Part shown: one piece after another, positions 1-6,345 of the stretch | Layout of the letters: every line of letters starts with the position of its first letter | Numbering within the stretch: position 1 is the first letter of the stretch | Position numbers and translations under genes: made by a program | Assembly (NCBI GenBank): GCA_963663965.2 | Contig: CAXXFK010000033.1 | Location: 253,181 to 317,180, forward strand | Length of the DNA stretch: 64,000 nucleotides | DNA from: Sedimentisphaerales bacterium | GTDB taxonomy: Bacteria; Planctomycetota; Phycisphaerae; Sedimentisphaerales; SM23-30 | Direction: 5' to 3' | The notes under the pieces: generated by a model | The model's input: the letters and a program-made list of their open reading frames with translations, nothing else | What the model was told of the DNA's origin: nothing | Database searches by the model: none

Positions 1-202
1 TCATATCACAGGCAAAAATACCTTTTTTGGCTTTCCCACCCAAAAAATGGAACAAGAGCCAATCCGGTTATACCCATCGGGTAAGGAAATGTCCGATCGT
101 TCGCAAGCTAAGATTTTGCTCGTAAAAGAGTTATTTCACGGCCCAGGTATATTATCCATCGTTAAGGGTATAAATGATGCGAATCGGCTGGCTATGGCCT
201 GT

Positions 203-739
203 TTATACGGTATTCTCATCCGGGGAATCAGTATCCGGCAATGATGCTGTTTCGTCGCCGGCGTTTGCATTCTGGCCGCCGGCTTTGCTGATGATTTCAT
301 CCAGCAGCAGGCCGAGTTTGTCGTAGTGTTTATCGGAAAATTTCAAAGCTCTTTCCGAACCGTTTTCCTGAAAGAACAGGATGAAATACCCTTTTTCCTG
401 GAAATTCCGTTTGTCCAGTTTGGTAATGGCTGAATAGGGAATAGCTGTTTTGCCATCGATTTGGAGCCCATTGTCATCGGCCACTATTTTTCTTTTTTTT
501 AATAATGCCATGCTGACAAAACAGTAAATGGCGAACGCGCCGGTTAAGAATGGGGTGGCCCGGTTGATTTTCAGATCAAGCGTGGGCTGACCTTCGCCTT
601 TTTCCATTTCTTTTTTATAATAATTGCTGTTGGGGTTGTAGCCGTCATTGATGAACCAGACCGAGACCCCAAGCAGAATAAAACCAAAAATGAGGAAGTT
701 TTTAATTGAATAATTGCTGGATGGAATTTCAAGCGCCAT
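203..739 (-). CDS. Hypothetical membrane protein (2 TM helices plus soluble C-terminal domain)
   Basis: 178-aa ORF with GAAAAGGA RBS upstream; hydrophobic stretches FLIFGFILLGVSVWFI and FLTGAFAIYCFVSMALL. Confidence 0.75.
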   Translation of the reverse strand: MALEIPSSNYSIKNFLIFGFILLGVSVWFINDGYNPNSNYYKKEMEKGEGQPTLDLKINRATPFLTGAFAIYCFVSMALLKKRKIVADDNGLQIDGKTAIPYSAITKLDKRNFQEKGYFILFFQENGSERALKFSDKHYDKLGLLLDEIISKAGGQNANAGDETASLPDTDSPDENTV

Positions 740-993
740 TATATCATCCTTTTCAGAATTCGATCATCAAGATATCTGTCAGTATATATAATCATCGACA
801 TAATACGAGTATTAAATAGAGGCTATTGTAATAAAAAAAGTATATTGTTACCTAAATTAATAAGAGTTTAATGTTATCCGGGCCTTTAAAACTGTTTATT
901 TTCCGCTAACTTTTCATTTCTGATCCAGGCAATAAATAAAATACGATTCATTTTATATTAATACGTTAATCCAGTGAATCTGGTCAACAGAAT

Positions 994-1022
994 TTGCCTT
1001 TTGTGGAAATATATGTTAGAAT
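994..1022 (+). promoter_or_regulatory. Sigma70-type promoter with extended -10
   Basis: TTGCCT (994-999), 17-nt spacer, TAGAAT (1017-1022) preceded by TGn. Confidence 0.6.
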
Positions 1023-1028
1023 ATTCAT

Positions 1029-1314
1029 GGTGAAGTTAAACCGTGTTCAGGATATATCCGGCACGCTAACTTATATAAGTCGGCTGTGAAGCACGTCTTC
1101 GCAGCCGGAAAATAAGCGCTTGAAAGGGCGATGAATATATCAAGACAATTCAAACAGGGCCTCGGGCCCATTTATCGAGGATGCGATCCGTCGCACCCCC
1201 TAATTAAAGCAGTTAGCAAACTGCTGGCGTTTCTTGCCTGAGCATCAGGTAAAAGAAAGCCAACCCCGAAACGAGCAGGTCATGGTGATCAAACGTCATG
1301 CCTGCTACTTTTTT
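1029..1314 (+). ncRNA. Candidate structured small RNA of unknown family (may include a 36-aa sORF at 1131-1241)
   Basis: Bounded by a promoter and an intrinsic terminator; about 8 consecutive hairpins in a GC-richer patch after an AT-rich spacer; no long credible ORF on this strand. Confidence 0.5.
1274..1314 (+). terminator. Intrinsic terminator
   Basis: AGCAGG-T-CATG / CATG-CCTGCT stem followed by ACTTTTTT. Confidence 0.65.
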
Positions 1315-1373
1315 GCGCGTACCAAACGACAAGGCACGACTCAGCGTGCCTTATCGTTATGGGGGAGGTATAT

Positions 1374-2813
1374 TTATTTATCGAAGGATAGAATCTTAAT
1401 GTTGCGATACCAGACCGGCGCGCCGTGATCCTGGAAGCACAGGTGTCCAATCCGGGGCAGGTCTTTGTAGGCGACATCGAATTTATTGGGGGTGCCATCG
1501 GGGTTTTTGTGGGCTTCTGTCCATTTATTGAGGTCCATATCGATGGTGGTCTGGCCGTTGAGCATCACCAGAACACGATTGTCGATAGCGGTGATGGTCA
1601 GGCGATTCCATTCGCCGGCGGGTTTGTTGGCATTGACTGAGGGCGCCAGGATGTCAAAGATACCGGCGCAACTGTGGATATTAACGGCTTTGCCATAGTC
1701 GTTCTGGATCTGGACTTCGATCCAGGGCAGCCAGTTTTTGGTATCACCGGTACGCAGGAACACACCGCTATTGGTGTTGTCGGCGACTTTGAAACTGCAA
1801 TCGAGCACGAAGTTGCCGTATTGTTCTTTGGTCCAGATATCGCCATCGCCATTGCGGGTGAGCAGGCCGTCGTTGAAAGACCAACTGCCTTCTTTAAGAA
1901 TAGCGTTACTGAGGTCATTTTTGAACAGAGATTTCCAGCCGCCGGGTTTGAGTTTGGCGCTGTAGCTGTCGAAGAACTCAACACATTTGCGGATTTCGGG
2001 CATGGAAGTCGTCCAGTTATATTCGTATTCGATCGAGAAGGTGCCGGTGAATTTCTGGCGATTGAGTTCATCGAGGATGCGCGGAACATTGCCCAGGCCC
2101 TGGCCCCAGATGGTATCGTGTTGTTGATCGGTATTGTTATAAAGCTCTTTAAGGTGAATTGTCTTGACGCGTCCCTGGAGTTTTTTGAGGCATTCGACGG
2201 GATCGAAACCGGAGCGAACCCAGTGGCCGGTATCACAACAGGCGCCCAGATATTGGCTGCGGCCTTTGAGTTGGTCCAGGACGATCTGTGGATCCCAGTA
2301 GCGAGTGGGTTTGGGATGGTTATGGATGGCGACGTTGATTTTGTATTCTTTGGCGAGTTTGTCGATGGTGTCGTAGGCTTCAAAGGCCGGTTCGGTGACG
2401 ATGGTCCGTATCCCCATGTCTTTGGCGAAGTCGAACACTTTGCGATCCTGTTCTTCGTTGCCGGATAGCCCGGTAACACCAAAATTGACCAGCGAGATGC
2501 CGGTTTGCTGAAGTTTCAGTTTGATTTTCTGACGCGTTTCATCGGACATGGAAGGTTCAAATTTGGCATCTGAGCCTTTTTCGATGGTCTGGCCGGGGTA
2601 AGCTTCGATCCAGGACAGGCCCAGGTCAGCGGTTTTATCAACGGCTTCCATAAAGGTATATTGGTTAAATGACCAGCATTGGATGGCCAGTTTCCAACCG
2701 GGAGCCGCATCAGTAGGGGGATGGACGGCATTGGGAACACCAGCCGCTGACAGGAAAGCGACGCAAGAGAGCAGGATGACTAATCCTGATAAAAGCCATT
2801 TTGAATTCAACAT
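1374..2813 (-). CDS. Secreted fusion of a sugar-phosphate isomerase/epimerase (xylose-isomerase-like TIM barrel) and a DUF1080 (3-keto-disaccharide hydrolase family) domain
   Basis: Signal peptide; TIM-barrel motifs AIHNH, DTGHW, HLKE, SIEYE; DUF1080 motifs NSGVFLR, EVQI, GEWN, QDHG..VWYRNIKI; ATG at 2813 follows GAAAGGA RBS. Confidence 0.85.
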   Translation of the reverse strand: MLNSKWLLSGLVILLSCVAFLSAAGVPNAVHPPTDAAPGWKLAIQCWSFNQYTFMEAVDKTADLGLSWIEAYPGQTIEKGSDAKFEPSMSDETRQKIKLKLQQTGISLVNFGVTGLSGNEEQDRKVFDFAKDMGIRTIVTEPAFEAYDTIDKLAKEYKINVAIHNHPKPTRYWDPQIVLDQLKGRSQYLGACCDTGHWVRSGFDPVECLKKLQGRVKTIHLKELYNNTDQQHDTIWGQGLGNVPRILDELNRQKFTGTFSIEYEYNWTTSMPEIRKCVEFFDSYSAKLKPGGWKSLFKNDLSNAILKEGSWSFNDGLLTRNGDGDIWTKEQYGNFVLDCSFKVADNTNSGVFLRTGDTKNWLPWIEVQIQNDYGKAVNIHSCAGIFDILAPSVNANKPAGEWNRLTITAIDNRVLVMLNGQTTIDMDLNKWTEAHKNPDGTPNKFDVAYKDLPRIGHLCFQDHGAPVWYRNIKILSFDK

Positions 2814-3366
2814 GTCAGATCCTTTCAATAAAATCGGGTTATCCATATGATGTCAGACTGTTAGAGTATTATATGGTATTGATACCAGGATCGACCAGCC
2901 CGATCGGACAGACGGATCGATAAGATCGATAGGGGTATTCATTTTTTAAATGTTAATATGAGTTGGCTTACCGGTTCGAAGTTAGATTATTGTAACTACT
3001 TTAAATAAAAGTATTTATGATATTTATTTCTAGCAAGCCAAGTCAGTTTTTTCCACTGGTGATCGAGATTCGGTCTGGTAATAATATAATGGGTAGTACA
3101 GGGATATTATTGCATCAATAAAGAGAAGTAATGCCTGGGGATTTTGATTGTAATCGGGTGTGTTAAGTTAAGCTGTGGGAAACAGTAAGCATCGGTTAGG
3201 ATATTTTAGTGGGATGGATGTAAGGGTTGTTTCTGAATACGGGCTGGTAATTTGACGCTTAATGGGCTGCCCAGCAATTGGCTTGTTATTGAATGATTAT
3301 AGAGTTTGTTTGTGACGTAAAATTATTCAAATTGGCTGATGTTTATGCGTTCAGCGTATAAAATAA

Positions 3367-4691
3367 GGCTCATCCGGTTAATGAGTAGTTTTGGTTATGG
3401 ATATGATGGATCCGGAGATAGAAGTATTCCTGATCGCGGTAGCCATGAGCCATTCGTTGCAGGAGGCCGATTTTACGGTTATTGACTTCGACTTTGCTGG
3501 TGCTGATGGGATGGTCATACCAATTGAGCAGGAAGGGTTTCCAGAGTTGCAGTTGTTTGGCGGCATCCAGCAGGATCCGAATCCCGCTGGTTTGCGCCTG
3601 GCTGATCCAGCGTTTAAGTTCCTGTTCAGCCAGCGGAGCCGTGATCGCATCAAAAAGGAGACGGAGCCGTTCTTTCATGTAATAGGCGGTGGCCAGCGGC
3701 TGGTTGAGTTGCAGAGCCTCCTGCAACCGGTGCCGTTCATCTTTGGCGCTATCGGCATGGGATTTAAGGTTCTCCGGCGCTTTGAGCAGCAGCCAGCGGC
3801 TGCCTTTAAGTACCGCTTTGCCCATGGTATCGGCCTCCCGGTACAAATCCCGGCGTAAACTGGTCAGTTTGTCGTTAAACCATTTGACCAGATGAAAATG
3901 GTCCAGCACCAGTTTGGCTTGCGGCAGTTCTTTCAGGACACTGGTCATAAAACCACTGGCCATATCGGTAGCCACCGCGGCAATCACCGCCCGGCTGCGT
4001 CGGACACGCCCCCAGAATCCCACCAGGGCCTCTTGGCCTTTGCCCTGGCCGATATGCAAGATTTGTCCGCTTTCCAGGTCGGTTACCAGCGAGATGTATT
4101 TGCTTTTCCTGCCCAGATACAATTCGTCAATCCCCAGATAACGAACCTTTTTCAGGGAAATCTTTCGGTACCGTCGACCTAGCCAGGACTTATGAATCGA
4201 TTTGATGGTATCCCAGCTTAAGCCGGTCCGTCGGGCCACCTCTTGCAGGGAAGCCGCCTGACATAAATCGATGACATACCGTTCCAACGCATGGGTGTAA
4301 TGCTTCTTGGGGTCGGCAAATGGCAGATGAGGCTGACGAATGGCCCCGCACGCCAGACATTTCAATCGGGGAATAGTGACAAGCAACTCCATTTGACGCA
4401 GACCGGCGGGTACCATGGCAAACCTCCGGGCCTTGTGACCGAAGTAAATGAAATTACGGGAGTTACAACAAGGGCAACGCAGACTATCCGCCGGCAAGAT
4501 GCCGTGAATCACGCTCTTGCCCGCAAAAATATTCTGTCTTTTGGTATTGAACACCTCGAACACCAAAAGTATGATACAACATACTTGTGGACATGACTTT
4601 AGCTCCTAATATGAGGTTTTATTTTTTTCCTCAAACAGTAAAGTCATGTCTCTCTTTTTGCAACATTAACTACTCATTTTTCGGAAGAACC
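3367..4691 (-). mobile_element. ISL3-family insertion sequence, 1325 bp, both ends intact
   Basis: Imperfect 24-bp terminal IRs GGCTCATCCGGTTAATGAGTAGTT / GGTTCTTCCGAAAAATGAGTAGTT; 8-bp direct repeat TAAAATAA at 3359-3366 and 4692-4699. Confidence 0.93.
3370..4594 (-). CDS. ISL3-family transposase with one apparent frameshift near the 5' end
   Basis: Zn-finger CPCC...CLAC, GIDE, ATDM, LDHFH, VEVNNRKI..GYR motifs; ATG at 4594 (MSTSMLYHTFGVRG) with AGGAG RBS joins the main frame only if one T is removed from the run at 4525-4529. Confidence 0.88.
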
Positions 4692-4905: not shown

Positions 4906-6345
4906 ATGTCTACGAATAAGCTGTCTCGTCGTGGTTTTTTGCGGATGTCTGCCGGAATGCTGGCCGGTTCGGCCTGGATGACCGCAAATGCCCAGAATGC
5001 CAATCCTCTATCGGCCTCAAAACCCAATATTCTGATCATCATGGCGGATGATTGTACGCATACGGAACTGTCGGTCTATGGCGGTCAGAATGCCAGGACC
5101 CCAACCATTGACAAACTGGCCCGGGACGGCCTGGTTTTCAATCGTGCTTATCTCAGTTCGGCCATGTGTCAGCCGTGCCGCGCCGAACTCTATAGTGGGC
5201 AATATCCGGTGCGTAATGGTTGCAGCTATAATCATTCGGCGTCGCGTCCCGAAACGCAGAGCCTGCCGCATTATCTGACGCCGGCCGGTTATCGTGTCGG
5301 TATCGCCGGTAAAGTCCATGTACTGCCGCAGAAGGCCTTTCCTTTTGAGAATGTGCCGGGATTTGATGACAACTGTGTACGCAACCCTACCCTGCCGCAC
5401 GATCTGAACGGTATCCGGCAGTTTATGTCACGTGAGGATACACCTTTCTGCCTGGTAGTGGCGTTGGTGGAACCGCATGTGCCGTGGGTAATGGGGGATG
5501 CCTCGGCGTATCCGCCCCGGTCGTTGAAGATGGCGCCCAATATGGCGGATACCCCGCGAACCCGCAAGGATTATTCAGCGTATCTGGCCGAGATTACCTA
5601 CATGGATAACCAGGTGAATGATATCTTGCAGACCCTGGAAAAAACCGGCAAAGCGGACAACACACTGGTGTTGTTTACCTCGGAACAGGGCGCCCAGTTT
5701 CCGGGCTGTAAATGGACCAACTGGGACAGCGGCCTGCATACGGCCTTGATCGCGCGCTGGCCGGGGCACGTACCTGTTGGCAAACGAACCGATGCCATTG
5801 TTCAGTATACCGATGTGGCGCCGACGCTGATGGAACTGGCCGGGACCGATGTGAAAAAGCACGCGGATAAGCTGGATGGCAGCAGTTTCGCGGCAGTTTT
5901 GAGCGGCCGGAGTCAGGCCCATCGCACCTATGCGTATGGCGTGCATAACAATGTTCCGGAAGGGCCGCCTTATCCGATCCGCACGGTGACCAATGGGGAA
6001 TATCGTTATATCCGCAATCTATCACCCGAACGGATTTATATTGAACGGCATTTGATGGGACCCGAAAACCAGTACTGGCCGTCCTGGGTCGCCCAGGCTT
6101 CCGATCACGAGGATATCTACAAACTGGTCCAGCGGTATCTGACGCGTCCGGCCGAGCAGCTTTATCATACCAAAACCGATCCGTTTGAGTTGACTAATCT
6201 GGCTGACGATCCCAGGTACGCCGATATCAAAAAGCAATTGTCGGCCGAGTTGGATCGCTGGATGGCTCAACAGAAAGATCCGGGCGCCGCGATGGATACG
6301 CCTGAAGTACACCAGGCCGCTAAACAGGGGAAACATATTTATTAA
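4906..6345 (+). CDS. Tat-exported formylglycine-dependent sulfatase (heparan N-sulfatase-like)
   Basis: Twin-arginine signal SRRGFLR; PNILIIMADD; CxPxR motif CQPCR; GKVH; AGGAG RBS. Confidence 0.92.
   Translation: MSTNKLSRRGFLRMSAGMLAGSAWMTANAQNANPLSASKPNILIIMADDCTHTELSVYGGQNARTPTIDKLARDGLVFNRAYLSSAMCQPCRAELYSGQYPVRNGCSYNHSASRPETQSLPHYLTPAGYRVGIAGKVHVLPQKAFPFENVPGFDDNCVRNPTLPHDLNGIRQFMSREDTPFCLVVALVEPHVPWVMGDASAYPPRSLKMAPNMADTPRTRKDYSAYLAEITYMDNQVNDILQTLEKTGKADNTLVLFTSEQGAQFPGCKWTNWDSGLHTALIARWPGHVPVGKRTDAIVQYTDVAPTLMELAGTDVKKHADKLDGSSFAAVLSGRSQAHRTYAYGVHNNVPEGPPYPIRTVTNGEYRYIRNLSPERIYIERHLMGPENQYWPSWVAQASDHEDIYKLVQRYLTRPAEQLYHTKTDPFELTNLADDPRYADIKKQLSAELDRWMAQQKDPGAAMDTPEVHQAAKQGKHIY

Follow-up and report, generated by a model that had tools for sequence, protein, structure and literature searches.

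The window that we analysed is a 64,000-nucleotide stretch of the genome of a Sedimentisphaerales bacterium, in which positions 994-1314 lie between two reading frames of the minus strand and carry a chain of hairpins that an earlier note had read as an independently transcribed RNA. Is this interval an RNA gene, does it belong to a known RNA family, and what might its product do? The promoter boxes, seven hairpins and terminator of the earlier note were all present at their positions when the coordinates were rechecked, and both flanking frames (203-739 and 1374-2846) are indeed on the minus strand. We conclude that 994-1314 very probably encodes a structured non-coding RNA with no match among catalogued RNA families, and, judging from the sequence, we hold with high confidence that it is transcribed from the plus strand as an independent RNA. 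The features of the locus are as follows.

203-739, minus strand: divergent neighbour, encoding a 178-aa conserved hypothetical protein of no Pfam family; synteny anchor, outside the RNA gene
994-1022, plus strand: sigma-70-type promoter, with -35 box TTGCCT (994-999), 17-nt spacer and TG-extended -10 box TAGAAT (1017-1022)
1029-1314, plus strand: predicted non-coding RNA of about 286 nt, its start placed 6 nt past the -10 box and its end at the T-run
1033-1072, plus strand: 5' hairpin, loosely corresponding to one that stands ahead of P0 in long homologs
1081-1107, plus strand: P0, a GGCUG/CAGCC hairpin preceded by an AU-rich linker; optional 5' module
1117-1130, plus strand: small hairpin with GAAA loop, with no evident homolog counterpart
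1144-1150, plus strand: conserved motif (G)ACA(UA/AU)(U/A), here GACAAUU, predicted to be mostly single-stranded
1157-1169, plus strand: P1 hairpin (covariation tests)
1177-1200, plus strand: P2 hairpin, whose second pair is an A-C mismatch (covariation tests)
1201-1208, plus strand: P2-P3 linker, A-rich and of near-fixed length (homolog alignments)
1209-1224, plus strand: P3 hairpin, consensus GCAGC/GCUGC, next to P4 (within the hairpin of the earlier note located at 1208-1225)
1226-1261, plus strand: P4 hairpin, with conserved base and variable apex (covariation tests)
1274-1314, plus strand: P5, intrinsic terminator, with stem at 1274-1306 and T-run at 1309-1314; the stem base is conserved in sequence
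1374-2846, minus strand: convergent neighbour of 490 aa, with a xylose-isomerase-like TIM barrel and a 3-keto-disaccharide hydrolase domain

The seven hairpins proposed earlier are thus all in place in the window; compared by eye with homologs, the one at 1117-1130 is without counterpart and that at 1033-1072 has only a loose one. The region 1025-1320 folds at -104.8 kcal/mol (z = -4.66), none of 200 shuffled sequences being as stable, and the element is single-copy in its own 7.2-Mb genome, where we found neither a second copy nor a repeat family. A separate hairpin at 1331-1352, just past the RNA terminator, is probably the terminator of the convergent gene. Further along, the window encodes an ISL3-family transposase (3370-4566, minus strand) and a sulfatase (4906-6345, plus strand).

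Taken by itself, the promoter match does not exceed chance (4 sites against 2.8 expected in a simple scan), and the terminator at 1274-1314 was not called by the same scan; both become convincing only because they are conserved in homologs. The claim that the RNA has its own promoter and terminator was borne out in all 28 homologs, in which a TTG-hexamer, a 16-17-nt spacer and a TG-type extended -10 box stand 245-526 nt ahead of a U-run, as found with a search pattern tuned after an earlier round of analysis, and two pairs of the terminator stem are invariant in 28/28. With a promoter matrix built from 18 relatives, the window being left out, the window promoter ranks first of the 162 sites above 12 bits in the 7.2-Mb genome and the rnpB promoter 13th; the first rank therefore makes it look like a strong housekeeping promoter under selection. 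We additionally compared a 178-nt contig of a close relative (depth below 5, from four contig sets of sequencing runs that also contained the probable source contig, five of the nine differing letters being listed), which differs from 957-1028 by four bases and two indels, none of them within the hexamers, and from 1029-1134 solely at the bulged base 1066.

The homologs (n = 28) were found by synteny and by RNA models: R1, a covariance model from four relatives with the window excluded; R2, a model of P2-P3; and R3, a sequence-only model of all 28. They comprise one copy each in 24 of the 25 genomes of the host's family, within the order Sedimentisphaerales, and in four metagenome contigs; the sole family genome without the RNA (G018) is 62% complete and also lacks both anchor genes. 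The description of the RNA as an orphan therefore holds for Rfam only, its gene being family-wide. R1 gives the element in the window a score of 42.5 bits and brought in two further genomes, and R3 yields one strong match (E below 1e-7) per genome in 24 genomes, which is partly so by construction. BLASTN of 980-1340 against 60 relatives returned no match, a misleading result: both BLASTN and filtered covariance-model searches overlook true members, which synteny recovers. Three genomes of genus g5, for instance, were missed by the filtered searches, and carry the RNA between tsaD and alr, like their congener.

Outside the family, the best R3 matches reached E-values of 3.5e-4 in the order's other families (125 genomes) and 3.5e-5 in a class sample, no R2 match in the 148 other genomes of a phylum sample fell below E 0.004, and the tsaD neighbourhoods in 30 genomes of other families yielded no copy of the RNA. 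A pattern scan of metagenomes gave 16 matches, of which four were true homologs beside the same neighbours; the GTDB scan gave 97, of which 80 were scored, six being true (with scores equal to those of known members) and the other scored ones chance; and none of the five matches in IMG/VR was scored by R1. Weak matches were inspected in three rounds, of seven loci (two true), 12 loci (none true) and 10 loci (none true), and those inspected outside the family proved to be terminators or stretches of coding DNA lacking the promoter. Since the first searches overlooked true members, family-restricted here means not found elsewhere at this sensitivity. Genus g44 has a bidirectional terminator (L214, L216-L218, L220) with a stem closely resembling P2, which we treated as chance.

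All homologs share a 3' core of about 170 nt, made up of the ACA(UA/AU)U motif, four helices and the terminator, in the order motif, P1, P2, a 7-8-nt linker, P3 beside P4, a 10-13-nt linker and the terminator. The motif, in the form (G)ACA(UA/AU)(U/A), was recognised in 25 of the 28, between 155 and 200 nt before the 3' end (probability by chance 0.08 for each sequence). The P2-P3 linker measures 8 nt in 25 homologs and 7 nt in three in the model-fitted alignment, and its constancy is visible in the MAFFT-only alignment too. Upstream of the core the homologs vary, and their total lengths fall into two classes, of 245-292 nt (nine) and 412-526 nt (19). The P0 hairpin, following its AU-rich linker, is found in 18 of the 28, namely 17 of the 19 long forms and the window. 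GGCUG-type helices show an 18-fold excess over intergenic DNA, a figure that is circular because the pattern was drawn from these RNAs.

The earlier suggestion that the transcript might be a dual-function RNA found no support. An SD-led ORF of at least 10 codons is absent in 13 of 21 homologs, the window included, and the ORFs of the eight others look unrelated; a conserved small ORF with its ribosome-binding site, the mark of a dual-function sRNA, was accordingly not found among these 21 of the 28 homologs.

We investigated whether the predicted stems covary. In the model-fitted alignment 93.4% of 936 cells pair, against 75.4% in shuffled and at most 43% in slid controls, with two-sided changes in 30 of 34 pairs; P3 has 99% of its cells paired and two-sided changes in 5/5 pairs in this same alignment, and it was structure-fitted alignments that gave the strongest pair counts. 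When 25 sequences were put through a home-made tree-aware test, its top 12 column pairs were all predicted stems, five of which exceed all 60 null sets (one in P1, one in P2, two in P4 and one in P5), while P3 has no individually significant pair there (best E 1.8). No pseudoknot or long-range pair stood out in this test, in whose alignment the motif is poorly registered. In a MAFFT-only alignment of P2-P3, covering 18 of 21 sequences (the misaligned L038, L041 and L045 were excluded), pairing extends to 87% of cells and two-sided cells number 13 against 3.9; pair types, in contrast, were no more numerous than in shuffles (139 of 500), and a slide of +3 reached 6 pairs, with a score of 0.155 against 0.214. 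Among four close pairs of sequences, 41 of 410 paired and 59 of 297 unpaired core positions had changed, and of the changed pairs 15 were kept and 19 broken when read on single-sequence unconstrained MFE structures. Overall, the stems are conserved and covary in relatives, which supports the earlier reading of the element as a structured RNA. The element shows what is generally expected of an independently transcribed bacterial structured ncRNA: a promoter, a terminator, covarying stems and no ORF.

Folding does not fix the strand, the plus-strand z-score being the stronger in 13 of 21 homologs, and the assignment to the plus strand rests on the polarity of the promoter and the U-run. This bears on the possibility that there is no trans-acting RNA at all, the interval being instead a leader on the minus strand, a 3' element of the neighbours or a cluster of palindromes acting at the DNA level, which we consider the least probable of the readings weighed here. 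Such an element would agree with the equal stability of the minus-strand fold, with its position between two minus-strand genes in most genomes, and with the second pair of P2, which is A-C in 19 of 28 homologs and so reads G-U on the minus strand (it is C-A in one, G-C, A-U or G-U in seven and a gap in one). The promoter and U-run, by contrast, point along the plus strand in 28/28, and the wobble pairs other than that of P2 read G-U 48 times and A-C 14 times on this strand, in a fitted alignment and hence with bias. The element is moreover single-copy, and in several relatives the 178-aa gene has, by eye, a promoter-like site of its own near its start.

Synteny argues in the same direction. 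The 178-aa neighbour gene is single-copy in 59 of 60 relatives, and in 18 of 24 relatives of the same family a promoter and a chain of hairpins can be recognised in its divergent intergenic region; in other families a coding gene stands directly upstream of it at the 14 loci examined. The RNA adjoins the 178-aa gene in the window and in 18 relatives, and lies between tsaD and alr in four, with its own promoter and terminator at both kinds of locus, the whole promoter-to-terminator unit having moved to the tsaD/alr site in one genus. The convergent neighbour at 1374-2846 is not conserved beside the RNA; the gene 3' of the RNA varies, and is convergent at most loci and on the same strand at least at the alr loci and at L055. 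The varying, mostly convergent downstream gene and the movement of the unit in one genus thus indicate that the RNA is not a leader, in agreement with the earlier note, which had excluded a leader of the flanking genes; these differ between genera. Nor did we find the arrangement of a riboswitch or cis-leader, upstream of a functionally related gene on the same strand.

The 178-aa protein has two hydrophobic stretches, as judged by eye, and a weak bPH-like lead. A conserved planctomycete hypothetical protein of about 251 aa, with a weak TIGR04255-like lead, is encoded at L013:2661-3413 (minus strand). The genes for these two proteins are adjacent in many genomes of the order's other families, and in many members of the host's family the RNA gene lies between them, on the opposite strand. 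At L285 (G081:C28:1-701), upstream of tsaD, several degenerate GC-rich hairpin repeats are followed by AGAATAAT and a second hairpin; the repeats look like a REP- or MITE-like array.

We next consider whether the RNA belongs to a known family. An Rfam search of the window gave no match over the element and one unrelated match at 230-293 (E 3.8), and the Rfam 15 covariance models, run on 28 regions (window positions 1-3000 and 27 homolog loci), gave no match on the strand of the RNA. The sole overlapping match, to GcvB on the opposite strand of L038, was rejected at 30.9 bits against a cut-off of 42. The earlier note had found no likeness to tmRNA, RNase P or SRP RNA, and the true copies of these were located on contigs C31, C18 and C29, with no match at the element. 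It had likewise set 6S RNA aside, rightly so, as the element has no RF00013 match and forms no long rod with a central bubble.

An RNA that binds RNA polymerase or a sigma factor in the manner of Ms1 or of a further 6S, (UU)GACA mimicking the -35 box, is improbable. 6S RNA (RF00013) and Ms1 are, like this RNA, single-copy, of a similar size range and under a strong housekeeping promoter, and the lengths of 245-526 nt and the G that precedes the motif in 17 of 25 homologs would suit this role, as would the fact that no 6S RNA was found in the window's own genome (94.6% complete). This RNA is a chain of local hairpins, not a rod with a central bubble; a separate 6S gene is present in 19 of 22 relatives, and the full UUGACA occurs in only a minority of homologs. 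6S RNA is present in 92 of 101 genomes of the order sample, and the failure to find it in the window's genome may reflect an assembly gap or a divergent copy.

CsrB/CsrC and RsmY/RsmZ are protein-sponge RNAs with many GGA motifs in loops or single strands. They share with this RNA a stand-alone, multi-hairpin build of 250-500 nt, a promoter and a terminator of their own, recurrent modules and a length that varies; this RNA, in contrast, is conserved in stems rather than loops and has no Rfam match. CsrA is encoded in the host and in 47 of 49 genomes of the order. A sponge of this type was rejected, since GGA is not enriched (98 against 112 expected, and 126 against 186 in a second count). A bacterial Y RNA was rejected as well, as no Ro60/TROVE protein was found in the window's genome and no Y RNA model matched.

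OLE, raiA, ROOL and GOLLD RNAs are lineage-restricted, covarying and independently encoded, and in this, as in having no assigned function, they are like the RNA described here. They are presented as large orphan structured ncRNAs (PMC12286853). The present RNA has no Rfam match and is a simple chain of hairpins, in which no long-range or pseudoknot pair was seen to covary, with a shorter conserved core, in a different phylum. The Rhodopirellula-1 motif, also of planctomycetes, is annotated as cis-regulatory, about 90-110 nt long and without an Rfam number in the table of its paper (PMC2864571), and its consensus there, compared by eye, differs from ours. We found no description of this RNA in the literature, where a record in the supplement of a large motif screen is possible. 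Taken together, the RNA appears from these comparisons to resemble a stand-alone bacterial regulatory or scaffold ncRNA, and belongs to no family tested.

RNA regulation in planctomycetes is almost unexplored, a review table listing eight annotated sRNAs for the whole PVC group (PMC9029176). What is new here is a covarying, family-wide ncRNA whose ends can be predicted, whose core is defined and whose natural deletion variants span 245-526 nt, in a host in which neither Hfq nor ProQ was detected. It is ready for curation as a new RNA family, and offers a good bait for learning how these bacteria deal with regulatory RNA.

We consider this to be a stand-alone, single-copy ncRNA gene of one Sedimentisphaerales family, from which RNA polymerase with the housekeeping sigma factor would make a plus-strand RNA of 245-526 nt that presumably acts in trans. 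Among possible mechanisms we favour, tentatively and at somewhat less than an even chance, an abundant protein-binding decoy or scaffold RNA. The partner protein would read the GC-rich helices of GGCUG/CAGCC type with their adjacent AU-rich single strands, as well as the fixed geometry of P2, linker and P3/P4; short forms would present the core alone, and long forms would add a second module of AU-rich linker and GGCUG hairpin. We favour protein binding for three reasons: sequence is kept in the stem bases and the linker has a fixed length, whereas the loops are variable; a single helix type returns at P0, P1, P2 and P4; and the long forms add a module.

Base pairing with mRNA has a different claim on the same core. 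An Hfq-independent sRNA, in which ACAWWU and the U/A-rich bases that follow would form the seed for mRNA start regions and the helices would stabilise the molecule, is unlikely but deserves weight. The motif is conserved and more often unpaired than the rest (mean unpaired probability 0.59 against about 0.4 overall, in 22 sequences), hairpins and a terminator come after it, an arrangement found in many sRNAs, and ACAUAU, by direct reading, is complementary to a start context of AU-AUG-U. It is nevertheless only 6-7 nt long, has two main forms (ACAUAU in 12, ACAAUU in 11) and has variable flanks, and the conservation of stem sequence and linker length exceeds what a seed mechanism needs. Five single-stranded segments of the window's RNA had no excess of long complements over shuffles in 2832 crude translation-start windows, a comparison of low power in one genome. 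This lack of a seed-target excess, the missing ORF, and the negative searches for Hfq and ProQ in the genome of the window, which is 94.6% complete, would further speak for protein binding.

A variable 5' region joined to a fixed 3' scaffold that ends in a sequence-conserved terminator stem is also what might be seen in an orphan scaffold, guide or template RNA, serving an unlinked enzyme (a domesticated OMEGA- or tracr-like system, or a reverse transcriptase) and having its 5' part cut off at ACAWWU. We regard this as very improbable, even with nine proteins with reverse-transcriptase domains encoded in the window's genome: the 5' part is long and structured, unlike a spacer, there is no Rfam match, and no reverse-transcriptase or nuclease gene of retron, DRT or OMEGA systems was seen among the identified neighbours, few neighbouring ORFs having been scanned for families. 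The nine comprise five equally scoring genes of 580-583 codons (L235-L239; G000 C2, C6, C21, C25 and C28), which probably represent a recently spread group II intron, and four others.

It is conceivable, but quite unlikely on the sequence data, that the RNA forms part of a housekeeping ribonucleoprotein, of a new class gained by the ancestor of the family and kept single-copy in every well-assembled genome. The core (ACAWWU, P1-P4 and the terminator stem) would then be the fixed-geometry scaffold of an essential complex, possibly freed from the variable 5' leader by processing, and the partner would be of a type not yet linked to RNA. The probability left over from the readings given above belongs to mechanisms that are not listed.

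For the favoured protein-binding decoy or scaffold, the partner is probably not CsrA, Hfq, ProQ or Ro60. SpoVG, which 43 of 49 genomes of the order encode, is at hand as a candidate, though an unspecific one; both SpoVG and CsrA are order-wide whereas the RNA is family-restricted, which counts against either. SpoVG is described as binding the abundant ncRNA Rli31 of Listeria in vitro (PMC4959528). As described there, Rli31, like this RNA, is stand-alone, ends in a terminator and belongs to a SpoVG-encoding host, yet it is built from a single long 5' hairpin, whose apical loop is C-rich, and a terminator, whereas this RNA has four to six helices with variable loops. The SpoVG gene of the window's genome (G000:C29:178942-179295) has a Pfam match of about 118 codons to a model of 82 positions, suggesting an internal insertion of about 35 residues.
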